The notes: generated by a model from the letters alone, not told the origin. Counted from the stretch's first letter, positions 6,992 to 64,000 are shown. The stretch is DNA of 64,000 nt from an uncultured Acidobacteriota bacterium (GCA_963773005.1 CAVYZR010000004.1:335272-399271), one strand, 5' to 3'. Program-made: numbers and translations.

Positions 6992-7049
6992 GCAGCACCT
7001 GCGGGCTCAGAGGTCGGTGAGAGGCTTTTGCAGCAATGAGGTTGAGACG

Positions 7050-8114
7050 ATGAAAACGAGTCGACGCGAGTTTCTCGGTGCGGTCGCGGCGTCACCGATT
7101 CTCCTGGGCATGCAGGACAAGGCGGGCTCGAAGGCGCCGATCATGGGCTCGGGCGCTTACACGTATGAAGCGACCCACGACTGGGGCGTGCTCCCGCCGC
7201 AGATCAAGTATGGCAACACCCACGGTGTCGTCGAGGACTCGCAGGGGAACATCTACGTCCATCACACCGTGCACGCGACCAGCGAGAGCGCCGACACGGT
7301 GGTGGTCTTCGATGGCACGGGCAAGTTCGTGCGCTCGTGGGGCAAGGAGTACCGCGGCGTCGCGCACGGCCTGTGGATCCGCAAGGAGGGGCGCGACGAG
7401 TTCCTCTACCTGACGGTCAACGCGGCCGGTGCGAAGCTGTCGCCGCGACCCGAGCTGCAGGCGGTGCTCGTAAAGACGACGCTGGCGGGCGAGATCGTCT
7501 GGAAGATCGACGCGCCGCCGGATTTCGAGGGCTACAAGCCGGGACCGGACGGCGTTGCGCGGCCCTACAACCCGACCAACGTGGCGATCGCGCCCAACGG
7601 CGACATCTACGTCGCGGATGGCTACGGCTCGTACTTCGTGAATCAGTACACCAGCAAGGCCGAGTACATCCGATCCTTCGGCGGACGAGGGTCAGAGCCG
7701 GGGAAGCTGACGGAACCGCACGGCATCTGGGTCGACACGCGCGCGGCCAGCCCGATTCTGGTCGTGGCCGATCGACGCAACAATCGCCTGCAGCGATTCA
7801 CGATGGACGGCAAGCACGTCGACTTCATCACCGGCTTCAGGCTCCCCGGGCATTTCGACGAGTACAAAGGCCTGGTTGTGATTCCCGATCTGCATGGGCG
7901 CGTCACGCTGATGGACAAGAACAACGTGCTCGTCGCGCAGCTTGGAGACTCGAACTCGCCGGAATGGAACAACCCGCTGCGCCGCGAGCCGCGGGATCAG
8001 TTCATCCCGGGCCAGTTCATCTGCCCGCACGGCGCGTGCTTCGATCACGACGGCAACATCTTCGTCGTGGAGTGGGTGGAGGTCGGGCGGGTGACGAAGC
8101 TGCGGAAAGTATGA
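7050..8114 (+). CDS. Tat-exported NHL-repeat beta-propeller protein
   Basis: SRREFL signal; NHL-type repeats PTNVAIAPNGDIYVADGYG, PHGIWVD...VADRRNNRLQ, PHGACFDHDGNIFVVEW. Confidence 0.88.
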   Translation: MKTSRREFLGAVAASPILLGMQDKAGSKAPIMGSGAYTYEATHDWGVLPPQIKYGNTHGVVEDSQGNIYVHHTVHATSESADTVVVFDGTGKFVRSWGKEYRGVAHGLWIRKEGRDEFLYLTVNAAGAKLSPRPELQAVLVKTTLAGEIVWKIDAPPDFEGYKPGPDGVARPYNPTNVAIAPNGDIYVADGYGSYFVNQYTSKAEYIRSFGGRGSEPGKLTEPHGIWVDTRAASPILVVADRRNNRLQRFTMDGKHVDFITGFRLPGHFDEYKGLVVIPDLHGRVTLMDKNNVLVAQLGDSNSPEWNNPLRREPRDQFIPGQFICPHGACFDHDGNIFVVEWVEVGRVTKLRKV

Positions 8115-17672: not shown

Positions 17673-19399
17673 GGGGCCTGCCTCGGCGTGCCCGAACCTT
17701 CTTTGAGTGTGTGGACCTTGTCGATCACGAGCGCCGTCCACGATTCTTCGCGGCCATTCGGCCAGCGCACCTCGAGACGATCGAACGCCGTCGCCGAACC
17801 AAGGCCGAAGTGCAGCCGGAAGTCGCTCTGCGAGTAGTAGCTGCCACCGCCGCGTACTTCCTGGACCTGAACGCCATCGGCCGTGACGAGTTGGACGCGC
17901 GCGCCGATCGCGCTGCGGTTCGACTCAGCGCCCACGAGCTTGACTGCCAGCCAGTGTCGATCCCCGCTCTGGTCGAGCCTGAAAAGGTCCGGCGTATCGT
18001 GGACGTTGTTGATGACGACGTCGACGTCGCCGTCGTTGTCGAAGTCGGCAAACGCCGCGCCCCGGCCGGCCTTGGGAATCGTCACGGGCGGACCGAGCTG
18101 CTCGGTGACATCCGCAAAACGTCCGTTCTTCAGGTTCCGGTAGACGACCTTGCGCTGCTTGTAGCCGGCTTCGGTCTTGATGCGATCGACTTCGGGATAG
18201 ACGTGCCCGTTGACGAGAAAGAGATCGAGCCAGCCGTCGTTGTCGAGATCGACGAAGCCGACGCCCCAGCCGAGCCACCGCGTGTTGAGGCCGATGCCGC
18301 CGGCAAACGTGCGATCCTCGCAGGCGCCCTTGCCGGTGTTGGCGTAGAGCGTCGAGGTATCACCGGCAAAGTTCGTCTTGAAGATGTCGAGCGTGCCGTT
18401 GCGATCGTAGTCGCCGATCGCGACGCCCATCCCCGCCTGGGGCTTCCCATCCTGGCTGTAGGCGCAGCCGGCGGTGATCCCGATGTCGGTGAAGGTGCCG
18501 TTGTGGTTGTTGTGGTAGAGCGCGCTTGGGTTGGAATCGTTGGCGACATACACGTCGAGCCAGCCATCGTTGTCGAAGTCGACGGTGGCTACGCCCAGCC
18601 CGTAGGTGCCGCGCGCGGCGGCGATGCCGGACGCGTCGGACACGTCCTCGAACGCGCCATTCCCGCGATTGCGATAGAGCACGTTCTTGCCGCCTGGCAG
18701 CCCTGGGGGGCCGCACGCGACCGGCAGGCCTTTATAGCGGCACAACCCGGAGGACGGGAGCGGCGTCGCCTTGAGATCGAGATCGATGTAATTGGCGGCG
18801 ACGATGTCGAGGAGGCCGTCGCGGTTGTAGTCGAGGAAGGCGCAGCCGGCGCCCCAGCGGGTGCGCGGCTGGGTAAGGCCGGCGCGCTCCGTCGCATCTT
18901 CGAAGGCGCCGTCGCCCTTGTTGCGATAGAGGCGGTTCTGGCCCCAGTAAGTGACGAAGAGATCGTCGTGGCCGTCGTTATCGTAGTCGCCAACGCAAGC
19001 GCCCTGTCCCCATCCGCCGTGCGCAAGGCCGGCGCGAGCGGTCACGTCTTCGAACGTCCCGTTCCCCTTGTTGCGATACAAGTGGTTTGTTGGTTCCTTG
19101 CCAGCGGGAAATCCCTCGAGCGTCGTGCCGTTGACGAGAAAGATGTCGATCCAGCCGTCGCTATCGAAATCGAACGCGGCGGCGCCAGTACCGGTCGTTT
19201 CCAGCAGGTACTGGTTGGTGTCGAGCCCGCCGTAGATCGTCTTTGCGACGAGGCCAGCCTCGCTCGCGATGTTCTTGAACGAAAAGCTCACGCCAGTCGT
19301 CTGGACGCGCGCAGCCACGCGGTCCGCGCCGAGCAGCGCGCCACATCCGAGAACGGACCAGATCAGCAGGCGTGTGACCTGTGAAAACGCGCGTATCAT
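17669..19399 (-). CDS. Second CRTAC1-family FG-GAP/ASPIC-UnbV protein
   Basis: Same architecture as 14706-16424: ETTGTGAAAFDFDSDG, GMGVAIGDYDRNG, GGGSYYSQS..HFGLG. Confidence 0.92.
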   Translation of the reverse strand: MIRAFSQVTRLLIWSVLGCGALLGADRVAARVQTTGVSFSFKNIASEAGLVAKTIYGGLDTNQYLLETTGTGAAAFDFDSDGWIDIFLVNGTTLEGFPAGKEPTNHLYRNKGNGTFEDVTARAGLAHGGWGQGACVGDYDNDGHDDLFVTYWGQNRLYRNKGDGAFEDATERAGLTQPRTRWGAGCAFLDYNRDGLLDIVAANYIDLDLKATPLPSSGLCRYKGLPVACGPPGLPGGKNVLYRNRGNGAFEDVSDASGIAAARGTYGLGVATVDFDNDGWLDVYVANDSNPSALYHNNHNGTFTDIGITAGCAYSQDGKPQAGMGVAIGDYDRNGTLDIFKTNFAGDTSTLYANTGKGACEDRTFAGGIGLNTRWLGWGVGFVDLDNDGWLDLFLVNGHVYPEVDRIKTEAGYKQRKVVYRNLKNGRFADVTEQLGPPVTIPKAGRGAAFADFDNDGDVDVVINNVHDTPDLFRLDQSGDRHWLAVKLVGAESNRSAIGARVQLVTADGVQVQEVRGGGSYYSQSDFRLHFGLGSATAFDRLEVRWPNGREESWTALVIDKVHTLKEGSGTPRQAP

Positions 19400-51233: not shown

Positions 51234-51309
51234 GCGCCCGTAGCTCAGTGGATAGAGCATCGGCCTTCTAAGCCGAGGGTCGCAGGTTCGAGTCCTGCCG
51301 GGCGCGCCA
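51234..51309 (+). tRNA. tRNA-Arg, anticodon TCT
   Basis: Full cloverleaf: GCGCCCG/CGGGCGC acceptor, GCTC/GAGC D-stem, TCGGC-CTTCTAA-GCCGA, GCAGG-TTCGAGT-CCTGC, encoded CCA; TACACT -10-like box at 51210-51215. Confidence 0.97.
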
Positions 51310-51664
51310 ACCTTCGCTCACGCTTGCCGATGAGGCCGATGAGATTGAGCTTCGGTTGGCAGGCCACGCGAGGGTTCAGGCCCGAGCGCGCCAATCGTTC
51401 AGAATCTTCAGCCAATCGAGTGTTCGCGCTTCCGTCTCATCCCGTCACCCACCTTCGGAGTCCGTCAACATCCGCGTGGCAGCCTTCGCTCGCGACAACC
51501 ATCACTCGCGTGGAACTCCACTGTTGGAGAGCGATTCGGTAAACAGTTCGGCGTTAGTCGGGACTCGACGGTATTGGCGCGAATGCGTCATTTCTGCGGG
51601 GTCGGTCTGCCGATGGCGATGCCTAGCGACCGCGCCGTCATGAGTCTACTGAGCACTCCCAGGG

Positions 51665-51859
51665 CTAGACCACCGCTCGAGGCAGTTTCTCTCTCATCAT
51701 CGAGTGGAATGGTGAATAAGTTCGCTGCACCCTTGCTTCGAGCGCAGCCCGTTCGGTCGCCGGTGCTGCCGCAATCCGCGCGCGCAGCTTGTCCCGCTTT
51801 TTCGCCCGATGTTGACGCAGATGTATGTCGGTGGGGTGATGGCTTGCACTCATGATCAT
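51665..51859 (-). CDS. Small basic helical protein (DUF6800-like by eye)
   Basis: RBS GGAGGAG; DIHLRQHRAKKRDKLRARIAAAPATERAALEARVQRTYSP. Family resemblance is from memory and unverified. Confidence 0.55.
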   Translation of the reverse strand: MIMSASHHPTDIHLRQHRAKKRDKLRARIAAAPATERAALEARVQRTYSPFHSMMREKLPRAVV

Positions 51860-52154
51860 GCTCCTCCGAGCAAGTGTATCTCGCCGATGTTCCCGTCACC
51901 TGTTCACAAGCGCACACTGAACCAACCGATTCTCTCGGAGGGTCGATTGCCTTAAGACGCTGCCAGTTGTCGGACCGGGGCCGGCCCGCCCAGTAACGAT
52001 CTGTCGCCAAGTCGCTTTGGATTGGCAAGGCTAAGGATGGAAGCCACTGCGGCGTTTTCCTGGACAAACCCGTTGACACTACGGCAACGTCGCGAGTGGA
52101 CGGACTCCGGTGACCAGGCGATGCCTTCAGGAGGGCATCAAGGCAAGCCCAGAC

Positions 52155-52265
52155 TCATGCGGCGGAGTGCACGACCGGTCCCCAGTTCAACCACATCGCC
52201 AACCCGGTCAGCGCGACGATGACGAGCACGATGAGGATGTGGACGGTGAATCTGCGTGTGGTCAT
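52155..52265 (-). CDS. Possible 36-aa single-TM peptide
   Basis: MTTRRFTVHILIVLVIVALTGLAMWLNWGPVVHSAA: basic N-terminus plus one hydrophobic helix. Confidence 0.35.
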   Translation of the reverse strand: MTTRRFTVHILIVLVIVALTGLAMWLNWGPVVHSAA

Positions 52266-52281
52266 CCTTTCGACACCCAGG

Positions 52282-52476
52282 TTAGTAGACACTGCTGGGA
52301 AGCGTTCGGTTCCACTTGATACCAAGGAGCGAAGCACGAGCGAGTAGCCGTCGGCCTTGCTCGGGCGTCAGCCAATTCCCCAGCCGAATACCGATGCGGC
52401 GCACTCCCTTCACACGGCGAATGCCCGCCGCCAGTTCCGGACTCAGGAGACCGGCATCGGCCGCCTCGGTTGCAAA
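52282..52476 (-). pseudogene. Fragment of a tyrosine recombinase/integrase
   Basis: Manual translation FATEAADAGLLSPELAAGIRRVKGVRRIGIRLGNWLTPEQGRRLLA...*, which I recognise as the segment before the catalytic domain of an acidobacterial phage-integrase family; no start codon and no catalytic residues. Confidence 0.75.
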
Positions 52477-52681
52477 ACGACAGCGACGATCCGCTGGCAG
52501 TCTCTTCCGCCGACCGTCGCTCGCATGCTGTCACACACTCGAGTCGCGCGGCTCCTCGAAGCCTTATGTGTCGCTTGCAGGGGTTGGCTTCCAACGGATG
52601 AATGCCCGCGTCCTTCTGCAGCCCACCGACTTGCCTACGCGACGGATATACTCCGTCCTACGCGATTCAACTGAGGTACGC

Positions 52682-53110
52682 ATGTCCGACAGAAACAAGG
52701 CTCGGGTCAGTGAATTCATTAACCGCGTTCTCACAGGAGGCGACATCGACGCTACCGGCGAGTACTTCGAGCGCAACATGGTGGAAGAGATGCCGTTCCC
52801 GCAACAGGGACCGGGACTTGCCGGCCTCGAGGATACGCTCATCCGCATTCGAGCGGCGTTTCCTGATTCGACGTGGACTGTCGAGGAGCAGATTGCGGAG
52901 GGCGACAAGGTGCTGACGCGGTTCGTCTGGTCCGGCACGCATGAAGGCGAATTCCTCGGCATCGCGGCCACCCACCGCCCGATCAATGTATGGGGCATGG
53001 TGATCGACCGATTCGCCGGAGAGAAGATCGTCTCGACCCGGATCCTGATGGACATGTTCGGGATGATGATGCAACTGGGCGTCATTCCACCGCCGCCGAC
53101 CGGTACATAG
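52682..53110 (+). CDS. SnoaL-like ester cyclase family protein
   Basis: RBS GAGG; NKARV..AFPDSTWTVEEQIAEGDKVLTRFVWSGTHEGEFLGIAAT..MMMQLG. Confidence 0.9.
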   Translation: MSDRNKARVSEFINRVLTGGDIDATGEYFERNMVEEMPFPQQGPGLAGLEDTLIRIRAAFPDSTWTVEEQIAEGDKVLTRFVWSGTHEGEFLGIAATHRPINVWGMVIDRFAGEKIVSTRILMDMFGMMMQLGVIPPPPTGT

Positions 53111-53139
53111 GTACGGGAAGCCTGCGCAGAGTGGAGCTA

Positions 53140-53220
53140 CCTGATCCATCGGTCGACCCCTGGAGCCTGGCCGTCACGATGTACGAGACAGCGACGAGCA
53201 CGAATCCGTTTCGCGCCCCC
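53140..53220 (+). pseudogene. Possible remnant of a Ser/Thr kinase (subdomain IX)
   Basis: PDPSVDPWSLAVTMYETATSTNPFRAP resembles the D-x-W-S-L-x-V-x-x-Y-E-x-x-T-G-x-x-P-F consensus. Confidence 0.5.
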
Positions 53221-53708
53221 GGCAGTAGTGGACACCACAAAGCTGGTGGTGCTCGCCAGGGAGTCGGACGCGCGCGTGCTGCCCCCCTGATTTGCCGACC
53301 ATCAATCGCGCTGTTCCTGAGGACAGAGCTGACTTCAGCCCTCGTCTACACTGCGGCGTTGCTCGTTACTAATGTCAGAGTTGAGCGCCGGCCGAGCTAC
53401 AACCCAAGCTGCGAAGCCGCTTCCTGGGATCTCCGTCGGCTGCGACGAGTGTTGGGGCATGATGCCGCCTGCGCGCCGTGCGTTGGATGTGCTCTTGCTT
53501 CCCTATCATCTCCAAGTCAACGAGGATCATCGCCGGCTCGGTTGCAGAAGGCGCTACGGGCTTTCGTTGGCACTTGGTCGAACACCCGTCCGCCGACGCC
53601 GGAGAGCCTTCCGGGGAGGGAGGACAGTGCGGAGGCCACCGCGCCGTTGCGCTACACTGCGCGTGTCGTCTCCGCCGGGCACCGGTCGGAGTCTCAAGGA
53701 GGGGCGTT

Positions 53709-55082
53709 GTGGCACCTGCCGCACAGTCGCTCGACGAGGCGCTGGTGCGGGCATTCGGAGCCGCCTTGCGCGGCGGGCTGCTGCGGCCGCGGGATCCCGC
53801 CTACGAGGCGGCGCGTTCGGTCTGGAACGCCGCGATCGACCGGCGGCCCGCCCTGATCGCCCGGTGTGCGGGAGCGGCCGATGTGATCCTGGCGGTCGAC
53901 TTCGCGCGCGCCAACAACCTGCTGGTCTCCGTCCGCGGGGGCGGCCACGGCGTGGCGGGCTTCGCGGTGTGCGACGATGGCCTGATGATCGACCTGTCCG
54001 GGATGAAAGGGATCCGGGTGGACCCGGCGAGCCGAGCGGTGCGGGCCGAACCCGGCCTCACCTGGGGGGAGTTCGACCGCGAGACCCAGGCCTTCGGACT
54101 GGCGACCACCGGCGGCTTCGTGCCCTCGACGGGGATCGCCGGGCTCACCCTGGGCGGCGGCCTCGGCTACCTGATGCGTCGCTTCGGCCTGACCTGCGAC
54201 AACCTCCTGTCGGCCGATCTGGTCACGGCCGACGGCCAGCTCCGCAAGGTCAGCGCGACAGAGAACGAGGACCTCTTCTGGGGCATCCGGGGCGGCGGGG
54301 GTAACTTCGGCGTCGTCACCTCCTTCGAGTACCGACTCCATCCGGTGGGACCGACCGTCCTCGGGGGGCTCATCGTGCACCCGCTGTCGGCGGAGCAAGA
54401 TGTCATGAGGTTCTACCGCGAGTTCGCGCCGACCGCGCCGGACGAGCTGACGACCCACCTCGCCTGGGTGACCACGCCCGGCGGTGACCCCGTCGTCGCC
54501 TTCCTCGTGTGCTACAGCGGGCCGCTGGAGCAGGGCGACGCGGTGATCCGGGCCCTGCGGGGATTCGGCTCACCGCTGGACGATACAGTCGGACCCATGC
54601 CGTACACCGCGGTCCAGGCGCTGGGCGGTCCCATGGCCCCACCCGGCCGGTTCAACTACTGGAAATCCAGCTTCATTCAAGACCTGACCGATGCGGCGGT
54701 CGACACGATTGTCGGTCGCTTCACCGCCGGCCCGTCGCCGTACCGCGTGGTGTCCGTCGAACAGCTCGGCGGTGCCGTGAGCCGCGTGGGCCGGGACGAG
54801 ACGGCGTTCGGTGAGCGGGGCGCACCGTACAGCCTGTTCGTCGCGAGCGCCTGGACGGAACAGGCCGAGGCCGACGAGAACGTGCGGTGGACGCGCGACT
54901 TCTGGGGGGCGATGCGGCCGTTCGAGAGCGAGGCGGCCTACGTCAACTACCTCGACGCCGATGAACAGGACCGAACCAGAGCAGTCTACGGCGGGAGGTA
55001 CGAACGGCTCGCCGCGCTGAAGAAGAAGTACGACCCGACCAACTTCTTTCGCTTGAACCAGAACATCAAGCCGGCGGGCTGA
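53709..55082 (+). CDS. FAD-binding oxidoreductase with berberine-bridge-like C-terminus
   Basis: RBS AGGAGG before GTG 53709; RGGGHG, GLTLGGGLG, WGIRGGGGNFGVVT, YVNY, KYDPTNFFRLNQNI. Confidence 0.93.
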   Translation: MAPAAQSLDEALVRAFGAALRGGLLRPRDPAYEAARSVWNAAIDRRPALIARCAGAADVILAVDFARANNLLVSVRGGGHGVAGFAVCDDGLMIDLSGMKGIRVDPASRAVRAEPGLTWGEFDRETQAFGLATTGGFVPSTGIAGLTLGGGLGYLMRRFGLTCDNLLSADLVTADGQLRKVSATENEDLFWGIRGGGGNFGVVTSFEYRLHPVGPTVLGGLIVHPLSAEQDVMRFYREFAPTAPDELTTHLAWVTTPGGDPVVAFLVCYSGPLEQGDAVIRALRGFGSPLDDTVGPMPYTAVQALGGPMAPPGRFNYWKSSFIQDLTDAAVDTIVGRFTAGPSPYRVVSVEQLGGAVSRVGRDETAFGERGAPYSLFVASAWTEQAEADENVRWTRDFWGAMRPFESEAAYVNYLDADEQDRTRAVYGGRYERLAALKKKYDPTNFFRLNQNIKPAG

Positions 55083-55379
55083 CGGTGACCATGTCCTCGC
55101 ACCTCTGTCGAAGGGGGAGTCGTGCTCTCGCTCCACTGAACTATGGCACGAGGACTCTGAACACGGACGATAGCAATCTTGAAGGAGCAAGAGCCGACGA
55201 GCGACTGGATCACTCGGCCGCCGCGCCAGCGGCTTCGTTCGAGTCGCGCAGTGTTTACTAGTCGGCGACCCATCCACACGAACGGTTCCCACGCGGTCCT
55301 CGCCGAACGATTTGCCGGGCAGCTGGAGAATACTCACCGGGTTCTGCGTCATCCGTGGCGATACGCGCGGCAGATCACG

Positions 55380-55495
55380 CGCGTGGCACGTCCGCGTGGC
55401 AGTCCTGGCAACCTGTTGAAACCCAACGTCCTCCGTTACAGGACCGCACCCTTCTAAGCCGAGGGTCCCGCGTTCGAGTCGCGGCGGGCGCACCA
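55380..55495 (+). repeat. att-like junction 1: direct repeats, IHF-like box and a variant tRNA-Arg 3' half (55450-55495)
   Basis: cgcgtggcac 55380, cgcgtggcag 55393, caacctgttgaaac 55409, then ccttctaagccgagggtc-ccgcg-ttcgagt-cgcgg-cgggcgcacca. Confidence 0.9.
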
Positions 55496-55562
55496 TCTTC
55501 TCGATTGATCCAGTAATCCCGTCCGCGCTGCCGCCCCGCCCATATAATCCACGGCAAGAGTC

Positions 55563-58304
55563 TTGGCGCTCACCCTCGGCACGTGCCTCGGCGTTTACGA
55601 AATCACCGCGCAGATCGGCGCGGGCGGCATGGGCGAGGTGTACAAAGGCCGAGACACGCGCCTCGATCGCGCGGTGGCGATCAAGATCCTTTCGGATAAC
55701 CGCGCTGCCGATCCGCAGTTCCGCGAACGCTTCGACCGCGAAGCGCGGACCATCTCACAGTTCACCCATCCGAACATCTGCACCCTGTACGACGTCGGCG
55801 AACATGCGGGCACCGCGTTTCTCGTCATGGAGCTTCTCGACGGGGAAACCCTCGAGCACCGATGTGCACGCGCCAACGCGAAGGGAGCTGGCCTGCCGCT
55901 GGGCGAAGCGCTGCGGATCGCGATCCAGATGGCCGATGCGCTGGCCGCGGCGCATCGTCAGGGAATCGTCCATCGCGATCTGAAACCGGGCAACATCTTC
56001 CTCGCGCGGAGCAGCGGAACTTCCGCCCCAGCAATCGCCAAGCTGCTCGATTTCGGCCTCGTCAGGACGGCGCCAGCCTTGACCGTCGACAAGGCCACCA
56101 TGGTGTCCACGACGCTGCCCCAGGCGATCACCGCGCAGGGCACGATCCTCGGCACGTTCCAATACATGGCGCCGGAACAAGTGGAGGGCGGCCACGCGGA
56201 CGCGCGCACCGACATCTTCGCGTTCGGCAGCGTGCTCTACGAGATGATAACGGGCAAGAAGGCGTTCGAGGGGAAGACGCAGACGAATCTCGTTGCTGCG
56301 ATTCTCGAGCGCGACCCACCGCCGATCACCACCGTGCAGCCGCTCGCGCCGCCACTCGTCGACGCCATCGTCCGCAAGTGCTTGGCAAAAAACCCGGACG
56401 ACCGTTGGCAGACCGCGTCCGACTTGGGATCGGCCCTGCGCTGGGCCGCGGAAGGCGCGAACGCAACCTCGTCTGGCGCAACCGCCGTCGCCAGAACGCC
56501 GCGAACTGGAGCACACCGTGTTGCAAACGGCGCCGTGGCGGCGGCGGGAATTCTTGGCTCGGTCGCGATCGGCCTTGCCGTCGGAGGGCGGTACATGTCG
56601 ACCGTCGCCACGCCCGCTGCCCTCGTCCGGTTTGAAGTGCAGCCGCCGGCAAACGTGACGCTGACGCCCGCGCCGATCGCGTCCGCCGCCCAGCTTGCGC
56701 TCTCTCCAGACGGGCGTCGTCTCGCGTTCGTCGCCACACCGAAACGTGCCACGTCGCAACTCTGGATTCGACCGCTTGATGGCGTACAGGCGCAACCTCT
56801 CCCCGGCACCGAGGGCGCGTCGTATCCGTTCTGGTCGCCCGACGGCCGGTTCATTGCGTTTTTCGCGGGGGGCAAGCTCAAGAAGATCGATACGACCGGC
56901 GGGCTGCCGCAGGTGCTCTGTCCTGCAGGAGCCGGCCGCGGCGGGACCTGGAACCCGGATGGCATCATCGTGTTCGTCGGTCAGGGAAACCGCCCGATTT
57001 CCCGAATCTCTGCTTCGGGCGGTGTCGTGACGGCGGCAACGACGTTCGACCCCGGCCAGGCGATTCTCGGGCAGTCCTGGCCGCAGTTTCTGCCGGACGG
57101 CCGACATTTTCTCTACCTGCAGCGCAGTTCGAAGCCCGAATACCGGGGCGTTTACGTGACGGCGCTCGACTCGTCGTCGTCCACACGCATTCTCGAGAGC
57201 GACCTGAGGGCCGTGTATGCCTCCGGGCACCTTCTGTTCGTGCGGGACGGGACATTGTTTGCGCAGGCGTTCGATGACCGTACGCTTCAAACGAGCGGCG
57301 ACCCCGTTCGAATAGGCGATCACGTCGGCTACTGGACCGCCGGAATGGGTTACGCAGCAGTGACCGTATCGCCGGCCGGTGTGCTGGCCCACGGCCCCAG
57401 CGTGCGGCTGACCACGAGCCTGCGCTGGTACGACCGCAGCGGAGCGTCAACGGCGCCCCCAACCGCGCCGGCGCAGTACACCACGCCGCGCCTGTCACCC
57501 GATCAGAAGAGCGTCGTGGTGGCTATGACGGATGGCGCAACGGCGCAGCCCGATCTCTGGGTGCTGGGGTTGGCCCGTGGCACGACCTCGCGCCTGACGT
57601 CCGATCCGGCCACCGACTGGTTTCCCGCCTGGTCCGCCGACGGCGGTCGCCTGCTCTTCGGGTCGAACCGCCTGGGGGTGACCACACCTTTCCAGAAAGT
57701 GGTCGGTGGCGGACAAGAGGAGCCCGCTGCGGAGAACATGTTCGGTGCGGCTGGCGCCACATCTCCCAGCGACACGTCAGGCGACGGACGGCTTCTTCTG
57801 TATACGCAATTGACGCAGCAGGGGTACGACCTGGGCGTGTTGACGTTGACCGGAGAGCGCAAGGCGAGCACGTTTCTCGGTACGCCGTTCAACGAAGCCC
57901 AGGCTCGTTTCTCGCCGAACGCTCGGTGGGTGGCGTACGCGTCGGACGAATCCGGCACGTTCGAGGTGTACGTCCGGCCGTTTCCTCCGGCGAGCGGGCA
58001 AACGCAGATCTCGATCGCCGGGGGCACGCAACCGGAGTGGCGGCGCGACGGCAAGGAACTGTTCTACATCTCCGCCGACGGCACGCTGACCGCCGTGCCG
58101 GTGACGACAGACGGAGCCACGTTCAGCGCTGGCACACCGCGAGGACTATTCGACGTCGAGGTGCCCGAGCCGAACCCGCCGTTCCCGACTGACTACGTCG
58201 TCACCGCCGATGGCCAACGGTTCCTCGTCAACACGGTCGTCGATCAGCCGACACGCCCAGCCCTGACCGTGATCCTCAACTGGACGGCGGATCTCAAGGA
58301 CTAG
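55563..58304 (+). CDS. Ser/Thr protein kinase with TM helix and PD40/TolB-like propeller
   Basis: GAGGMGEVY, VAIK, HRDLKPGN, DFG, YMAPE; SPDG repeats; TATAAT at 55543-55548. Confidence 0.95.
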   Translation: MALTLGTCLGVYEITAQIGAGGMGEVYKGRDTRLDRAVAIKILSDNRAADPQFRERFDREARTISQFTHPNICTLYDVGEHAGTAFLVMELLDGETLEHRCARANAKGAGLPLGEALRIAIQMADALAAAHRQGIVHRDLKPGNIFLARSSGTSAPAIAKLLDFGLVRTAPALTVDKATMVSTTLPQAITAQGTILGTFQYMAPEQVEGGHADARTDIFAFGSVLYEMITGKKAFEGKTQTNLVAAILERDPPPITTVQPLAPPLVDAIVRKCLAKNPDDRWQTASDLGSALRWAAEGANATSSGATAVARTPRTGAHRVANGAVAAAGILGSVAIGLAVGGRYMSTVATPAALVRFEVQPPANVTLTPAPIASAAQLALSPDGRRLAFVATPKRATSQLWIRPLDGVQAQPLPGTEGASYPFWSPDGRFIAFFAGGKLKKIDTTGGLPQVLCPAGAGRGGTWNPDGIIVFVGQGNRPISRISASGGVVTAATTFDPGQAILGQSWPQFLPDGRHFLYLQRSSKPEYRGVYVTALDSSSSTRILESDLRAVYASGHLLFVRDGTLFAQAFDDRTLQTSGDPVRIGDHVGYWTAGMGYAAVTVSPAGVLAHGPSVRLTTSLRWYDRSGASTAPPTAPAQYTTPRLSPDQKSVVVAMTDGATAQPDLWVLGLARGTTSRLTSDPATDWFPAWSADGGRLLFGSNRLGVTTPFQKVVGGGQEEPAAENMFGAAGATSPSDTSGDGRLLLYTQLTQQGYDLGVLTLTGERKASTFLGTPFNEAQARFSPNARWVAYASDESGTFEVYVRPFPPASGQTQISIAGGTQPEWRRDGKELFYISADGTLTAVPVTTDGATFSAGTPRGLFDVEVPEPNPPFPTDYVVTADGQRFLVNTVVDQPTRPALTVILNWTADLKD

Positions 58305-58350
58305 GCGGATTCAGAGTCTCATCGTTCGCTCCGACGTGGGGTAGATCAAC

Positions 58351-58464
58351 CGCGTGGCACACCCGCGTGGCAGTCCTCGCAACCTGCTGAAACATCGCCA
58401 CATCAGTCATAGGAATTCACCCTTCTAAGCCGAGGGTCGCAGGTTCGAGTCCTGCCGGGCGCGC
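58351..58464 (+). repeat. att-like junction 2: same module plus a 44-bp exact copy of tRNA 51264-51307
   Basis: cgcgtggcac 58351, cgcgtggcag 58364, caacctgctgaaac 58380, tRNA copy 58421-58464. Confidence 0.93.
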
Positions 58465-58470
58465 TTTACC

Positions 58471-58572
58471 TAACCGGGGGGCTTCGCCCCGCCGGCCCCC
58501 CGACACGCGCTCTCGCGCGCCGCTTCGTCGGCGCGCTCCGTTTCGCGTGGCTCACTCGCTGCGCTCGCTCGC
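58471..58572. repeat. Family D multi-hairpin repeat
   Basis: Nearly identical to 61661-61763. Confidence 0.88.
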
Positions 58573-58860
58573 ATCGTTCGTCGAGGGGCGGGGGCTCCGG
58601 CGTACCGCTCCGCCTTGGGCGCCATAGCGCGCAGCGCGAAGGCGGCTCGCGTGGCTCACTCGCTCCGCTCGTTCGCACGCGCATACGCCGCTGGGGAGTG
58701 TGCGACCGAGGAGGGGGGCCGAGCATCAAGCATGCGTCTGCGTCAATCTCTGGCAGCTAGATCAAACACGAGCTTTGTCCGGCAAGCCGCCACCGCAGCG
58801 CAGCAACACTGGCGCCACGACACAGTGGCCTAACACTATAATTCCCGCCACAGGCAATAA

Positions 58861-61488
58861 ATGCCACTCAGCCCAGGAGCTTCACTCGGTCCTTATGAAA
58901 TCCTGTCCCTGATCGGAGTCGGCGGGATGGGAGAGGTCTATCGGGCTCGCGATCCGCGTCTGGGACGAAACGTGGCGATCAAGGTTCTGCGCGGTGAGCG
59001 AATCGCCGACGATGATCGACGTCGTCGCTTTCTTCTAGAAGCCCGCGCTGCATCGTCCATCAACCATCCGAACATCGTTACCATCCACGAAATCGAGTCG
59101 TCGAATGGCACAAACTTCATCGTGATGGAATTGGTCGATGGACAGACTCTGGATGGGTTGATTCCCAAATACGGTTTTCCGACGAGCGAGCTGCTGCGCA
59201 TCGCGATTCCGATTGCGGACGCTGTATCCGCAGCTCACAGCCGGGACATCGTCCATCGGGACTTGAAGCCTGCTAACGTCATCGTCGGGCTAAACGGCGT
59301 AGTCAAAGTGCTGGACTTCGGTCTCGCAAAACTGCTGTCGCGTGCAAGTGATCAGAACGTGGAGACAATGACTGGGGACGCTGCCTTGAGCAGGCCAGGA
59401 ACGATCGTGGGAACGGCGGCGTACATGTCGCCAGAGCAGGCGACCGGTGGCAACGCAGATACCCGAAGCGACATATTCAGCTTTGGGGCCATGTTGTACG
59501 AAATGGCAACTGGACGGCGTGCCTTCGCCGGCAAGACACCTTCCGACACGCTGACGGCAGTCGTCCGGGATCAGCCAGCGAAACCGAGCACTCTAGTGCC
59601 AGGAATCCCGGAGCCCCTCGAACGACTGATCATGCGTTGCATCCGAAAGGACGTGGACAAACGCGTCCAGAGCATGGCGGACGTGCGTCTCGAACTGGAG
59701 GACCTGAAGGAAGATTCCGAATCCGGCGGTGCCGCTGGAGCGAAGACGCCAGCGCAACCCGTTGGTCGTCGGGCTATCTGGATGGTGGCCGCCCTGGTGA
59801 CGGCTCTGGTCGCGGCCGCGGCTCTGTTTCACCGCCTGCCGCCCGTGTCGCAGTCGCTTCCTCTTGTGCATCTCACGTCCGAGCAGCGAGCCGGCATGGG
59901 CAGTTTTTCCCCCGACGGTACGCAGATCGCGTACGCTTCTGCCGGCGACGAGGGCGCGAACTGGGACATTTGGCTGAAGGTCGTCGGAGAGCCCGAGTCC
60001 CGGCGCGTGACGACTAATCCCGCGTCGGAGGGCTTTCCCGCATGGTCGCCCGACGGGACACAAATCGCATTCATTCGTTATGCGGTCCGGGTGCGGGGTC
60101 AGTTCTTCTCGTTCCCTTTTGCCGGCGTCATACATCTGGTCTCACCCGTTGGCGGAGCCGTTCGTCGGTTATCCGACTTTCCCGCGAGGCTGCAGCTCTC
60201 CTGGTCGCCTGACGGCCGCTGGTTAGCCGCGGCCAAGGCCAGATCGGGAAGCGATCCACCAGGCGGCATACACCTGATCTCGGTCAACACTGGCGAGGTC
60301 CGTGCGATCACGTCACCGCGGCCACCAGCTTTCGATCAGTCACCGGCGTTTTCCTCGGATGGCCGGGCGCTGGCGTATGCAGGCTGCGTCGGGTCGGAAG
60401 GAAATCCGGGGTGCGACGTGATGGTCATTTCGCTCGACTCGGAACTGAAGCCCATCGGATCGCCTCGTCAGTTGACAGAGCAGCGGGTCGTGAACTCCGG
60501 CGTCGTTTGGACGCGCGATACGCGGGCTATCGTCTACGGCGACTACATCAGCGGCCTGTGGCGAGTCCCAGTCGAAGGCAAGACTCCCCCCGAGCGGATT
60601 GCCGGGGCCAATCAAGGAGGGTTCCCGACTGCGGCGGTCAGCCGGGACCGCCTCGCCTTCGTGCGCTCGACTGGCAGTCCCGATATTTATCAGCTCGATG
60701 TGGGCGGCTCGACGACTGCACTGATCGAATCCACTTTCCCAGACGTATTTCCGGAATATTCGCCAGACGGTCGCCGAATGGCTTTCGAGTCAGGCAGGGC
60801 GGGAGGGACTAGCGAAATCTGGCTGGCCGATGCCGATGGACAGAATCCGACGCGGCTGACGCGCGGTCCCGGCCGGCACCAGGGCACGCCGCGATGGTCG
60901 CCAGATGGGCGTACTATCGCGTTCGACTCCCTGACTGAAGGCGGCCACGCCGATATCTGGACAATCAGCACGGATGGATCTGGATTGCGACGGGTGACCG
61001 ATCATGCGGCAGACGAATTCACTCCGAGCTTCTCGCGAGATTCGCGTTTCATCTACTTCGTTTCCAACCGAACGGGTAGTAATGAGGTCTGGCGCGTTGT
61101 GATCGCCACGGGCGCGGAAGATCAGTTGACGCGTAATGGTGCGACGGCGCCGTTCGAGAGCCTGGACGGTCGAACGCTTTACTACAGTCATCCTAGCGGC
61201 GCGCTGCTTGCCCGATCGACAGCAGGGGGCATAGAGCGAACGATTCGTCCTTGCACAGGGGCATGGGCCGTCGCTACAAAAGGGCTCGTCTTTGAAGATT
61301 GTGGGTCGCCCGACGCGCCCGACCGCTTGGTTCGTTTCTGGGACGAGGCGACGGATCAAGATCGAATCATCGGGTCCCTATCGACAGACTGGATCGGCGG
61401 CCTAAGTCCCTCGCCCGACGGGCGGCGGATCATCTTCGGGCGCCTGAAGGCGACCTCCGACCTGATGATGATCGATGGTTTTCGGTAA
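58861..61488 (+). CDS. Ser/Thr protein kinase with TM helix and PD40/TolB-like propeller
   Basis: [29 protein letters not shown]; many WSPDG repeats; TATAAT at 58837-58842. Confidence 0.95.
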
Positions 61489-61539
61489 CCGAACGAGATC
61501 GACCGCATTAATTAATGGAGTTAGACAGCGGCAATCAAA

Positions 61540-61654
61540 CGCGTGGCACGTCCGCGTGGCAGTCGGCGCAACCTGTTGAAACGCAAGCCGCCTCCGATAC
61601 AGGAACGCAGCCTTCTAAGCCGAGGGTCGCAGGTTCGAGTCCTGCCGGGCGCAC
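61540..61654 (+). repeat. att-like junction 3: same module plus tRNA 3' half
   Basis: cgcgtggcac 61540, cgcgtggcag 61553, caacctgttgaaac 61569; 61610-61652 is identical to tRNA 51263-51305. Confidence 0.93.
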
Positions 61655-61660
61655 TTTACT

Positions 61661-61763
61661 TAACCGGGGGGCTTCGCCCCGCCGGACCCCCCGACACGCT
61701 CTCTCGCGCGCCGCTTCGACGGCGCGCTCCGTTCGCGTGGCTCACTCGCTGCGCTCGTTCGCA
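61661..61763. repeat. Family D multi-hairpin repeat
   Basis: taaccggggggcttcgccccgccgg...ctcactcgctgcgctcgttcgca. Confidence 0.88.
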
Positions 61764-61820
61764 CCCTGGCGCTTGTCTGATTGCTTTTGCCGCCGCAACG
61801 CGAGGGCGTAGAGTGGAGGG

Positions 61821-62353
61821 GTGATGGAACTCACGCTTCGCGTCCTAATAGCAGCGGCGTTGCTCGGCAGCGTCGACGCACGCGCCGCGGCTGTGCAGGA
61901 AAACAATCCGCCTCCGCAGGCTCAAGCAGCCGCCGCTCGCGACATCAATGCCCTGATCCGTCAGGTGCTTGCCGATCGGATCCCGGCGAAGGACATTCCG
62001 GATTTCGGCCTCCTCCGGGGCGCGAAGCGAATTGCGGTTCGCTCCGACCTCGTCCGCTTCGCGCTCGGACAAGACGCGATGCCTGCACTCGAGGGCTACG
62101 AGTTTCGACTCATCTCTGCCGCGGAGACCCAGGCCGAAGCCGAGCGAACCCAGACCAGCGTTTTTTCATCGCCATCGAGAACCTTCGGATGATTGGTGGG
62201 GACACCGCTGGTCTATGGATTGGCGTGGACGTTGCCATGCCGTCAGATCCCAAGCGGGTCAAGATGTGCTGTTGCTCTCGCTTGTTGGAGTATCGACGGA
62301 TCGAGGGCCGTTGGGTCTTCGTACGGTGGTGGGAAGAAGGCCGCTGCTACTGA
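61821..62353 (+). CDS. Secreted hypothetical protein; frameshift in the T-run at 62161-62166
   Basis: RBS GGAGG and signal peptide; adding one T joins ...RTQTSV to FFIAIENLRM...VKMCCCS...GRWVFVRWWEEGRCY*. Confidence 0.7.
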
Positions 62354-62434
62354 CGCGGCCGGGGCCCCGTTTCAGCGGGCACGAATGCTACGATCAAGCG
62401 GCGACACCACGGAAGGGAATCGTGCAACCTTTCA

Positions 62435-62678
62435 CGAATCCCCCCGGGCGCGCCAACCTTCGCTCACGCTTGCCAACGAGGGCGTGAGCTACGGTTGGCA
62501 AGCCATGCGAAGGTTCAGGCCCGAGGCGCGCTCCTTCTAATCGAGGGGCTTCGCCCCTCGAACTCCCCTGCACGCTCGCTCGGGGGGACCCCGGCGCCCC
62601 GCTCCGCCTTGCGCGCCATAGCGCGCAGCGCGAAGGCGGCTCACCTACCTTCAAAGTCCGTCAGTATCCGGGTGGCAG
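62435..62678 (+). repeat. Degenerate att-like junction 4: tRNA tail plus a homolog of the DNA that follows the intact tRNA
   Basis: 62444-62474 is identical (31 bp) to 51298-51328; 62485-62525 resembles 51346-51386; 62641-62678 resembles 51445-51482; a family D repeat begins at 62538. Confidence 0.85.
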
Positions 62679-64000
62679 ACGATGCGATGAGTCTGCCGGT
62701 CGCGAGTGTCGATGAGCCCTGCCCTTCTACGAAACGGTGATGGGGTTCAGCTTCGTCACGCGGAACCCGCTGCGCTCTCGTCTTCACTGGAACTTGGTCT
62801 CTCGTTGTCCCGAGGATCGGTGATGAACTCGAGGTCGGCTGCTTCGTTCGACGCTGCCACTCGGCCGCCTTGTCCGGCTTCCCCCAGGCCTGGTAGAGAC
62901 TGACAATCCGAGTCGCGGCGTCTTCGACAAGCGGCCGGTCCTCATAAGGCATGCGGGCTTCGCGCTGGTGCAGTCCCCGATACCCCGATAACACGAGCGG
63001 TTCAGCCTCAGCATGCTTGTCCTGAGCGGCGAGACTCCCTCCCAGCACGCTCTCGCAGTGATAGCGTCTCCAGCCATCCGCTTTGGTCTTCTCGTACCCC
63101 GACACGCCATCACGAAGGAGCGACTCGGCGTCGGCGTACTTCCCCTGCTGAAGCCGGACCAGGCCCAATGAAGTCATGGCCCTGAGGGTGTCGGCATGGT
63201 CGGGGCGCAGCCGGCGCCTGCGTACGTCCAGCACTCTGATGAAGAGGACCTCGGCCTCCGCATACTTGCCTAGCCTTTGGTACAGCATTCCGAGGTTGTC
63301 CTCGAGGGTCTGGGTGCCGGGGTGCTCATCGCCGAGCAGGCGCCGCGCGAGATCCAGCAACTTGGTCAAGAGCGCCTCGGACTCGGCGTACCGGCCTTGC
63401 GCCCGATACAGTTCACCGAGATCGTTCGAAGCCGAGATCGTGAGGGGGTGCTGTTCACCCATCTGGCGGCGTCTTCCGTCCAGTGTTTCCGTGAGCAGGG
63501 GCTCGGCGAGCGCGTATTTGCCTTGATTCTGGTACGCCAGTGCCAGGTTGGCCATCGAGTCCAAAACAGAGGGGGACTCCGGAGCCAGCACGCGACGCCT
63601 CGCCTCCAGGACTTGGGCGAAGAGCAGTTCCGCCTCCGCGTATCGACCTTGCCGTTCGCAGATCGCCGCCAGTCCGTTCGCGACATGGATTCGATCCGGG
63701 TGGTCCTCGCTCACGACGCCTCGCATGTCCTCCATGGCCTTCCGGTACAGTTGCTCGGACTCCTCGAGCCTCCCCTGATTGAAGCGCAGCGCCGCGAGGT
63801 CTCTCACGCTGTTCAACGTCTTGGGATGTTTGTCACCGAGCACGCGGCGCCGGATCTCGAGGACTCTGGTCGTGAGCGGTTCAGCCTCCGGGTACTTGCG
63901 CTGGTCGGAGTAGACGAGCGCCAGGTTGTTCATGTGAACCAGGGTTTGTGGATGCTCTTCGCCCAGCACGCGACGAGACAGTTCCACGACCTGCACGAAA
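62641..64000 (-). CDS. TPR (kinesin-light-chain-like) repeat protein, 5' part outside the window; possibly the C-terminus of a Ser/Thr kinase
   Basis: 42-aa repeats RRVLG.EHP.TL..MNNLA..Y..QG.Y.EAE; ends LYQAWGKPDKAAEW followed by an atypical tail. Confidence 0.88.
   Translation of the reverse strand, partial: FVQVVELSRRVLGEEHPQTLVHMNNLALVYSDQRKYPEAEPLTTRVLEIRRRVLGDKHPKTLNSVRDLAALRFNQGRLEESEQLYRKAMEDMRGVVSEDHPDRIHVANGLAAICERQGRYAEAELLFAQVLEARRRVLAPESPSVLDSMANLALAYQNQGKYALAEPLLTETLDGRRRQMGEQHPLTISASNDLGELYRAQGRYAESEALLTKLLDLARRLLGDEHPGTQTLEDNLGMLYQRLGKYAEAEVLFIRVLDVRRRRLRPDHADTLRAMTSLGLVRLQQGKYADAESLLRDGVSGYEKTKADGWRRYHCESVLGGSLAAQDKHAEAEPLVLSGYRGLHQREARMPYEDRPLVEDAATRIVSLYQAWGKPDKAAEWQRRTKQPTSSSSPILGTTRDQVPVKTRAQRVPRDEAEPHHRFVEGQGSSTLATGRLIASSATRILTDFEGR

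Follow-up and report, generated by a model that had tools for sequence, protein, structure and literature searches.

The 64,000-nucleotide stretch of DNA analyzed here (the window; GCA_963773005.1 CAVYZR010000004.1:335272-399271, from an uncultured Acidobacteriota bacterium) carries, from its tRNA-Arg(TCT) gene rightwards, a tandem array of small gene-bearing units separated by copies of the 3' half of this tRNA. We consider it likely that the array was built by tandem site-specific accretion of small integrase-less units at tRNA-Arg(TCT) in a member of the Vicinamibacterales, and that these units resemble cis-mobilizable elements (CIMEs). This reading draws on what is observed: how the array is built, that it lacks an integrase, that its units are independent of one another and how widely the junction family is spread. 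The source assembly (G000) has the character of a metagenome-assembled genome (MAG), comprises 12 contigs with 6.5 Mb in total and is 93% complete. The window spans positions 335272-399271 of its contig C4, which is 433 kb long and extends 33.7 kb beyond the window.

Tandem copies of a tRNA 3' half

ARAGORN detects a single tRNA gene in the window, tRNA-Arg(tct) at 51234-51309. A 44-nt repeat family begins within its anticodon loop at 51264 and has further members at 55450 (84% identity), 58421 (100%) and 61611 (98%), with spacings of 4186, 2971 and 3190 nt between successive copies. A genome-wide scan adds a perfect copy at C4:401696 (window coordinate 66425), 2.4 kb past the window, and finds the 44-nt core absent beyond the array, other tRNA-Arg genes excepted. 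All four displaced halves begin at the anticodon loop, and one eroded tail accompanies them. The last 20 nt of the tRNA and ~190 nt of its downstream flank (51289-51482) are repeated at 62435-62678. The octamer CCTTCTAA occurs five times in the window against 0.30 expected, a count that none of 100 shuffled sequences reaches. Repeat search and shuffles thus confirm the tandem tRNA halves at 55450, 58421 and 61611 that a preliminary description of this DNA had reported, and the cut-down tRNA tail it had placed near 62435 is found to belong to a decayed junction at about 62398-62460. The CCTTCTAA occurrence at 62533 cannot be counted as a fifth tRNA half, as it sits in a copy of a dispersed repeat of ~100 nt.

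The copies delimit units of about 4.1, 2.9, 3.2, 0.8 (truncated) and 4.0 kb (Table 1). With the further core at 66425, unit 5, the last in view, is therefore 3.99 kb long. The units proposed earlier stand as described, but their array does not end with the window: it runs on until unit 5 closes at 66425. Units 1, 2, 3 and 5 retain attL and attR, being flanked by cores at either end with an arm at the right; the right-hand junction of unit 4 is eroded. As in tRNA-borne islands, the tRNA is restored and direct repeats of its 3' part lie at the far ends of the insertions. Following the contig rightwards, as had been suggested, yields this one more junction but no intact integrase in profile searches of contig C4.

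Table 1. Features of the array at tRNA-Arg(TCT), in window coordinates
Feature	Position	Strand	Basis
Intact tRNA-Arg(TCT), attachment site; attL core from 51264 in anticodon loop	51234..51309	+	ARAGORN; Rfam tRNA 76 bits
Type-A flank: hairpin-forming stretch, then CGCGTGGCA and CGCGTGGAA at 51473, 51507	51310..51535	+	Repeated at 62435-62678
Unit 1 cargo: SnoaL-like gene 52316-53110 (+), BBE/FAD oxidase gene 53478-55082 (+)	51536..55334	.	Pfam
Unit 1 P arm, two CGCGTGGCA repeats at 55380, 55393	55335..55449	+	Repeat family, alignment
Displaced tRNA 3' half 1, 84% identical, compensated T-stem variant	55450..55493	+	Repeat search
Unit 2 cargo K_u2: Ser/Thr kinase with PD40 beta-propeller, 913 aa	55563..58304	+	Pfam Pkinase 7.5e-45, PD40
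Unit 2 P arm	58334..58420	+	Repeat family, alignment
Displaced tRNA 3' half 2, 100% identical	58421..58464	+	Repeat search
Repeat R, two copies of ~100 nt each, immediately behind half 2	58471..58678	+	Dispersed-repeat search
Unit 3 cargo K_u3: Ser/Thr kinase with PD40, 875 aa	58861..61488	+	Pfam
Unit 3 P arm	61515..61610	+	Repeat family, alignment
Displaced tRNA 3' half 3, 98% identical; then repeat R 61661-61763	61611..61654	+	Repeat search
Unit 4 cargo: short frame, signal-peptide-like N-terminus, probably truncated gene	61821..62192	+	Translation, codon-position GC
Decayed junction: degenerate P arm fused by deletion to T-loop and acceptor tail of tRNA half	62398..62460	+	Alignment
Second type-A flank, broken by repeat R copy (about 62540-62610)	62461..62678	+	Repeat search
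Unit 5 cargo: C-terminal TPR part of 1124-aa TPR Ser/Thr kinase; gene to 66015	62641..64000	-	Pfam on L001:641-4015
Unit 5 P arm 66345-66424; half copy 66425-66468	outside window	.	Junction sequence read

The junction arm and its relation to integrase genes

Every full displaced half is preceded by a conserved arm of 80-115 nt that contains two CGCGTGGCA repeats 13 nt apart. These repeats beside the core are present in every arm, and other elements of the order have analogous double repeats between integrase gene and tRNA. The double motif GCGTGGCA-N5-GCGTGGCAG occurs exactly four times in the 6.5-Mb assembly, each time at a junction of the array. Between 50500 and 64000 (E up to 0.1), Rfam detects the tRNA and otherwise only a sub-threshold overlap; the arm and the dispersed repeat R match no RNA family.

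The key to the arm comes from integrase-bearing relatives. In locus L027 (genome G406), a 371-aa tyrosine integrase frame (PF00589, 2.5e-16) has its stop codon 9 nt ahead of a copy of the core, and its end, QARGSVAWAESQIVAKKAASD, aligns with the translated G000 arms, QTRGTSAWQSAQPVETQAASD. The match covers the last ~21 codons of the L027 integrase, homology worth ~20-25 codons being left in each arm, and the DNA alignment places both at equal distance from the core. In G342, an integrase pseudogene that is 52% identical to the L027 type adjoins GCGTGGGCACGTCGCGTGGGCAG and the core; in sequence, this GCGTGGGCACGTCGCGTGGGCAG falls between the canonical arm and that of L027. Remoter integrases of the order (~35% identity) show the same layout of integrase 3' end, two short direct repeats, ~50 nt of sequence and a tRNA-Arg gene or half. 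Because the arm is homologous to the L027 and G342 integrase 3' ends and the layout recurs in remoter elements, we assign it as the putative integrase-proximal attP arm of an element family, which would overlap the integrase gene 3' end in autonomous members. The halves and the integrase-linked arm together support the earlier identification of the repeats as att junctions of the type that tyrosine integrases make at the anticodon loop.

For the steps of array growth we follow the usual model of site-specific integration. Integrative elements that are small and belong to a single tyrosine-integrase family would carry an attP composed of a P arm, the tRNA 3' half as core and a P' arm, with the two CGCGTGGCA repeats located in the P arm and this arm overlapping the integrase gene 3' end in autonomous relatives. 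Upon integration, the tRNA would be rebuilt with the incoming element's own half, and the earlier half with everything behind it would be displaced downstream. At least five such insertion events would lead to the present units, which consist of cargo and att sites alone. The order of these events, the responsible integrase family and any present mobility are what we infer.

Recombinases in the array and in the genome

Six-frame profile searches of the whole assembly return 13 matches to PF00589, 5 to Resolvase (PF00239) and 9 to Y2_Tnp (PF04986), none of which lies on the 433-kb contig C4. The preliminary description had stated that the units encode no intact recombinase; this holds and can be widened by the profile searches to all of contig C4. 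With three att-linked integrases of relatives as tblastn queries, no remnant is found in the array and no match falls below E 0.04. The searches with the G004 and G032 integrases, which are linked to the same tRNA, covered the array plus 33 kb downstream and gave one weak match (E 0.041, 54828-55178, minus strand); it lies antisense in the BBE gene and is taken as chance. The closest G000 homologue of the tRNA-Arg-linked G032 integrase adjoins a tRNA-Thr gene on another contig and is 29% (tblastn) or 33% (genome search) identical to it.

No cognate integrase of the junction family was found elsewhere in the 93%-complete assembly. Pfam scans of the long frames detect no integration or transfer genes, with the limit that no search by name was made for families of relaxases and coupling proteins. 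Scans and profile searches together bear out that the units are small and carry cargo only, without integrase. Since no cognate integrase was found, the units in G000 are probably immobile, and they could be excised or moved only by the integrase of an incoming element.

Independence of the units

The diverged kinases, arms that are closer to foreign arms and a foreign T-stem argue that the units are separate insertions from different donors and not local duplicates. Identities among the array kinases, and with their best paralogues elsewhere in the genome, are only ~30-41% (best paralogue at 41% for K_u2, 38.5% for K_u3). In 12 genomes of the same genus the best matches reach 47% for K_u2 and 45% for K_u3; for contrast, G003 shares 73.5% identity in the M16 peptidase encoded ahead of the tRNA. 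Compared over 95 nt, each arm is nearer to an arm in some other genome (69-80% identity) than to the remaining arms of its array (60-74%). The half at 55450 has its T-stem changed on both strands, from GCAGG/CCTGC to CCGCG/CGCGG. This type of T-stem is native to the tRNA-Arg(TCT) of G026 and L032 and is also found at displaced halves in L026, L027 and L084. Kinase identities, congener matches and the arm comparison therefore support the earlier view of the units as independent acquisitions.

A local origin would mean tandem duplication of a tRNA remnant with its kinase by unequal crossing-over, the junctions being homogenized by gene conversion from the tRNA. The junctions at 58421, 61611 and 66425 do share an odd boundary, GC followed by TTTACYTAACC without CCA, and together with repeat R they are 86-91% identical over 220-267 nt. 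A kinase gene directly behind tRNA-Arg(TCT) or its half is also seen in G003, G001, L032 and L033. Nevertheless, we regard this explanation as very improbable: the kinases retain 30-41% identity while the junctions retain 86-100%, and the conserved arm is missing from the tRNA, so that conversion from the tRNA cannot account for it. The arms are nearer to those of other genomes, the T-stem variant at 55450 is foreign, and the genes of units 1 and 5 are unrelated, with unit 5 inverted.

That the array is an assembly artefact is hardly credible. A 12-contig, MAG-like assembly with 93% completeness is open to misjoins, which repeats favor, but the repeats here are short (44-270 nt), their copies are not identical and each unit has content of its own. 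The same junctions also form arrays in the independent assemblies G001, G406, L040, L051, L054 and L084. A comparison of public sequencing runs by sampled words lists 24 runs, of which the best contains 0.30 of the words.

The junction family and the tRNA-Arg(TCT) hot spot in other genomes

Of 112 genomes of the family, four have the pattern of arm and core, G000 at four places and G001, G012 and G056 at one each. A scan of public genomes returns it in 13 stretches, nearly all titled as Vicinamibacterales or Acidobacteriota MAGs, and these titles are our ground for the lineage assignment. It is also present in 58 further metagenome stretches, and 72 sites in 71 loci were considered. At all 72 sites, from Vicinamibacterales genomes and soil metagenomes, the arm adjoins a displaced tRNA-Arg(TCT) half. 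The search demanded the exact arm motif and by design excluded autonomous relatives with slightly different arms. At least 1 kb of upstream sequence is available for 53 of the 72 sites; the remaining 19, with less than 1 kb, are little informative.

The reading frame through the arm closes at a median of 34 codons, calculated for the 69 of 72 sites at which it closes within the locus. The five longest frames (L085, L046, L048, L023, L055) were considered as integrases and rejected, as they translate to arginine-rich nonsense. In tblastn searches with 11 integrases, integrase sequence is detected in 6 of the 71 loci, and none is located upstream of a canonical arm at the 72 sites. These six comprise the L027 gene, fragments of ~60 aa in L032, L040, L045 and L088, which are located upstream of the tRNA, and a fragment of the G032 type in L084. 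Homologues of the L027-type integrase with at least 52% identity occur in 3 of 401 genomes of the order. In G406, the integrase-bearing unit and two canonical integrase-less junctions stand within one array.

Where both ends are visible, units elsewhere are about 1.0-7.0 kb long, mostly 2.3-4.6 kb, with one of 18.7 kb in G056. In seven of these units, the products of 10 cargo frames include GMC oxidoreductase, alpha/beta hydrolase, CarboxypepD_reg, MBL-fold, cyclophilin and BNR proteins; two frames have no Pfam family, and no mobility gene is among the 10. The same junction of arm and core thus encloses different cargo in other genomes.

The tRNA 3'-half pattern occurs in two or three copies in 7 of 40 relatives searched. 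Among these, G001, G002, G032 and G035 were inspected at the locus, where their half copies lie 4.5 to about 20 kb apart on a single contig. A second integrase family is encoded directly downstream of the tRNA and convergent to it. Intact genes of this family are present in G032 (470 aa) and G024 (88% identical), a gene decayed by an in-frame TGA and frameshifts in G004 and a truncated one in L084; the arms of this family have different repeats. Thus, several element families accumulate at this tRNA, and we conclude that tRNA-Arg(TCT) is an integration hot spot in the order at which integrase decay is common. The G004 pseudogene (L012, G004:C30, 9625-11007), from a genome of the same genus and frameshifted in its middle part, is very close to the G032 integrase over its last ~110 residues. 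Two full-length tRNA-Arg(TCT) genes are seen in L006 (G035; 6995-7073 and 18728-18804), in L054 (5815-5891 and 7748-7824) and in L004 (1954-2029 and 16237-16312), and integrase fragments precede a full tRNA in L032 and L040. Some elements of the group may duplicate the whole tRNA instead of its 3' half.

Origin of the integrase-less state

The units may have lacked an integrase already on arrival. They would then form a non-autonomous family of minimal circles of attP and cargo, served in trans by an L027-type integrase in the manner of miniature inverted-repeat transposable elements (MITEs), and the array would be a cassette store. We treat this as a tentative possibility. It agrees with the canonical sites, where the frame through the arm in no case continues into an integrase and tblastn with 11 integrases is blank upstream of the arm. 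The units are mostly small, with one or few genes, their arms are uniform and the kinase-arm spacing is tight. Moreover, the integrase-bearing unit of G406 shares its array with two integrase-less junctions, and K_u6, the kinase gene behind the last core, has a 96.5% match within a contig that otherwise differs, which points to a recent transfer on the scale of one gene. On the other hand, the cognate integrase is not found in G000 and is rare in the order, as given above for homologues of at least 52% identity. The blank upstream regions also lose weight through the exact-motif search, which left out autonomous relatives with slightly different arms, and through the many short metagenome contigs, with 53 of 72 sites offering at least 1 kb upstream. 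In addition, a single ancestral deletion derivative, spread by cis-mobilization or by descent, would give an equally uniform arm.

The opposite explanation, which we consider doubtful, takes the units as pure fossils of larger autonomous islands that lost the integrase and most genes later, by independent deletions, and have been immobile since. Integrase decay is indeed common at this tRNA, as seen in G004 (TGA and frameshifts), G342 (TGA), the truncated gene of L084 and the ~60-aa fragments in L032, L040, L045 and L088. Within the array, the junction at 62398-62460 is visibly eroded, and K_u6 is frameshifted in G000 while it is a single frame in G128. Fossils would also fit the failure to find a cognate integrase in G000 and the small number of genomes in the order that have one. 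Independent deletions, however, should leave integrase remnants of many lengths, and none is detected upstream of the 72 arm sites. Instead, the 19 distinct junctions aligned (21 rows, two of them duplicates) have arms that all break off at much the same distance, ~115 nt, from the core. K_u2 ends ~30 nt and K_u3 ~46 nt ahead of the arm, which therefore leaves no room for a decayed gene. The homology of the arm to an integrase 3' end bears on derivation by deletion in general, of which no graded remnants are found at the 72 sites. The preliminary description had set a pattern of eroded islands in relatives against mobile units. Decayed integrases at the tRNA in G004, G342, L084 and L040 do show such a pattern, but for neighboring families and not demonstrably for these units.

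In its widest form, the proposal of arrival without integrase would be that miniature elements of attP and one gene are widespread in soil Vicinamibacterales and are moved in trans by rare L027-type integrases, the tRNA locus serving as a cassette store that feeds the kinase repertoire. We offer this only as a speculative extension that is unlikely to hold in full.

Flanking sequences and remodeling of unit 1

Two types of sequence follow the cores. The type-A flank stands after the tRNA and at 62435, and repeat R after the cores at 58421, 61611 and 66425. The type-A flank is not dispersed, as it is present in two places of the genome. It also stands behind displaced halves in G001, G012, L021 and G002, and it is similar to the flank of the single tRNA in G007. 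Behind the tRNA of the array, two identities come into question, P' arm of unit 1 and ancestral downstream flank; the comparison with other genomes allows that it may be the latter. Five clean insertions alone, however, would not put it both right behind the intact tRNA and at 62435.

For repeat R, a first look yields 218 candidates in G000, and 40 of the 41 relatives searched have matches to it. A role as P' arm was considered and abandoned, since a repeat dispersed in such high copy number, with hundreds of copies, is not itself an att arm. It is ~100 nt long, GC-rich and starts with a GGGGGGCTTCGCCCC hairpin. The copies in the window are located at 58471-58573, 58575-58678, 61661-61763 and about 62540-62610. 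Elsewhere, repeat R forms a tandem run with a 104-nt period (C3:896303-896938) and stands immediately behind tRNA-Arg(ACG) at C6:619422-619561.

Unit 1 differs in its history. Its segment 51536-52055 is 97% identical to C2:6585-6069, and 53354-55215 is 99.2% identical to C3:78329-80187. Both partner copies adjoin Y2 transposase genes of the IS91 type, one of them together with an integrase-like gene. Judged by these identities, unit 1 is a mosaic of recent intragenomic duplications, which suggests that IS91-family elements recently moved the flanking DNA shared with unit 1. Given the near-identity to IS91-adjacent DNA, part of the array was thus remodeled by processes other than att recombination. 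IS91-family genes (Y2_Tnp with Zn_Tnp_IS91) are found at C2:3140-8731, C3:76734-77984, C8:87518-89105 and C8:261488-263075, and some of them are preceded by or fused to a tyrosine-recombinase-like gene.

Several of these observations weigh against accretion of integrase-less units in its simplest form. Two flank types alternate in the array, where a simple model expects a single native flank, located distally; five clean insertions are therefore too simple a history. Unit 1 starts with an ancestral-looking flank and consists largely of 97-99% identical copies of IS91-adjacent DNA. The link between arm and integrase rests on two elements whose arms are slightly off the canonical form, and the protein match is short, with 19-27 residues and E values of 0.04-0.8 in a small database. 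Finally, kinase clusters without tRNA remnants exist elsewhere in the genome, for example four genes at C4:88-99 kb. Site-specific accretion at tRNA-Arg(TCT) remains the likely reading with these points taken into account.

Cargo genes

Serine/threonine kinases dominate the cargo. The 18-kb array holds four kinase genes against ~0.26 expected, by our own arithmetic from 93 Pkinase matches in 6.5 Mb; many of these 93 have PD40 or TPR tails. The kinase units have their own promoter-like leaders. Pkinase matches away from the tRNA array also include the stretch at 8131-10650 of the window. In the TPR kinase gene of unit 5, the 126-nt periodic repeats at 63118-63999 correspond to 42-residue TPR_10/TPR_12 units and form no feature of their own.

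The PD40 kinase gene K_u6 behind the last core is split in G000 into two overlapping frames (L001 4878-5699 and 5617-7452, window coordinates 66878-69452). In its homologue in G128 (L034, G128:C31, 1127-3736), the kinase and propeller parts are in a single frame. K_u6 is 96.5% identical over 2611 nt to this gene on the contig of another MAG, and the similarity ends at the limits of the gene; the rest of the first 40 kb of the contig is 68-92% identical or unmatched. Contig G128:C31 (L033) is titled Solirubrobacterales, yet has an arm and core junction of the Vicinamibacterales type, repeat R and the K_u6-like kinase. It is either a misbinned contig or a case of DNA transfer between phyla. A contig titled Gemmatimonadota (L031) likewise has an arm and core junction.

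One gene each had been proposed for units 2-4. For the two kinases this stands, but the gene of unit 4 is probably not the 190-codon frame, which has no Pfam family. The 123-codon frame at 61821-62192 is more gene-like in its codon-position GC. Two further frames were rejected as genes: the 163-codon frame at 51588-52079 has no Pfam family and a codon GC like that of non-coding DNA, and the 308-codon minus-strand frame at 54570-55496 overlaps the BBE gene.

Comparison with known systems

The preliminary description had proposed an integron-like cassette system. The likeness lies in the ordered stack, in the mostly single-gene, promoter-poor units between recombination sites and in the newest unit being expected at the attachment site. 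The differences are that the array has no IntI beside the attachment site, no attI and no attC hairpins; the upstream neighbor of the tRNA is an M16 peptidase gene and not an integrase. Direct reading of the junctions, with no attC model run, reveals no attC-type sites. In their place stand tRNA halves accompanied by integrase arm repeats, and promoter-like leaders belong to the kinase units themselves. With no platform integrase, no attC-type sites and an arm that is homologous to an element-borne integrase, the integron analogy does not hold.

Its novelty was also overstated, as published accounts already describe tandem arrays with integrase-less units. CIMEs keep attL and attR, have lost the integration and transfer genes and form tandem stacks at a target gene's 3' end; newcomers accrete by integrating at a resident att site, as described for islands related to ICESt1 and ICESt3 in Streptococcus thermophilus (PMC5704250). 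CIMEs are like the array units in the retention of att sites, the missing integration genes and the tandem stacking. In contrast to them, the array has no adjacent integrase-bearing integrative and conjugative or integrative and mobilizable element and hence no visible driver of cis-mobilization. Its units are far smaller, often with one gene, the host is acidobacterial, insertion is into a tRNA anticodon loop and genes for conjugation are not seen.

Multiple islands of Dehalococcoides stand in tandem as well, downstream of the single small-RNA gene ssrA and bounded by direct repeats of the ssrA 3' end, and fifteen of them are without integration module and were proposed to be cis-mobilizable (PMC3146451). 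One expanded paralogous family dominates the cargo there as here, rdhA in Dehalococcoides and Ser/Thr kinases in the array. The islands are associated with a serine recombinase module by attL and a 20-bp ssrA repeat, whereas no G000 unit keeps such a module and the array has a 44-nt tRNA half with an arm of ~100 nt related to a tyrosine integrase 3' end. Prochlorococcus tycheposons are tyrosine-recombinase elements at tRNA genes, with older ones pushed deeper into the island by successive integrations; degenerate elements can be recognized by partial tRNAs and integrase fragments, and small, adaptive cargo is carried (10.1101/2020.12.28.424599). The islands described in that account are similar to the array in tRNA targeting, stacking, partial tRNAs and small cargo. 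They differ in the host phylum, while the array is uniformly integrase-less and has a junction arm that is conserved across many genomes.

We conclude that the array is not an integron and, by analogy, appears to work like the CIME, Dehalococcoides ssrA and tycheposon arrays. What stands out is that all units lack an integrase and most hold a single gene, that the arm is conserved and that the cargo is rich in kinases. Literature searches on tRNA islands of Acidobacteriota or Vicinamibacterales and on integrase-less tandem elements brought up nothing in print on this array or its arm in Vicinamibacterales; the supplements to the tycheposon and Dehalococcoides studies may hold closer parallels.

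For the Vicinamibacterales, which are abundant in soil and represented here by metagenome-assembled records only, the locus is a clean and datable record of repeated gene gain at a single site. It ties the expanded set of Ser/Thr kinases of these genomes to site-specific insertion, and soil metagenomes can readily be searched for such units with the junction of arm and core, as the 72 sites illustrate. If the units are not mobile, they are another case of accretion and decay, as in streptococci, Dehalococcoides and Prochlorococcus. If it is true that they move in trans, they would be a tRNA-based counterpart of gene cassettes.

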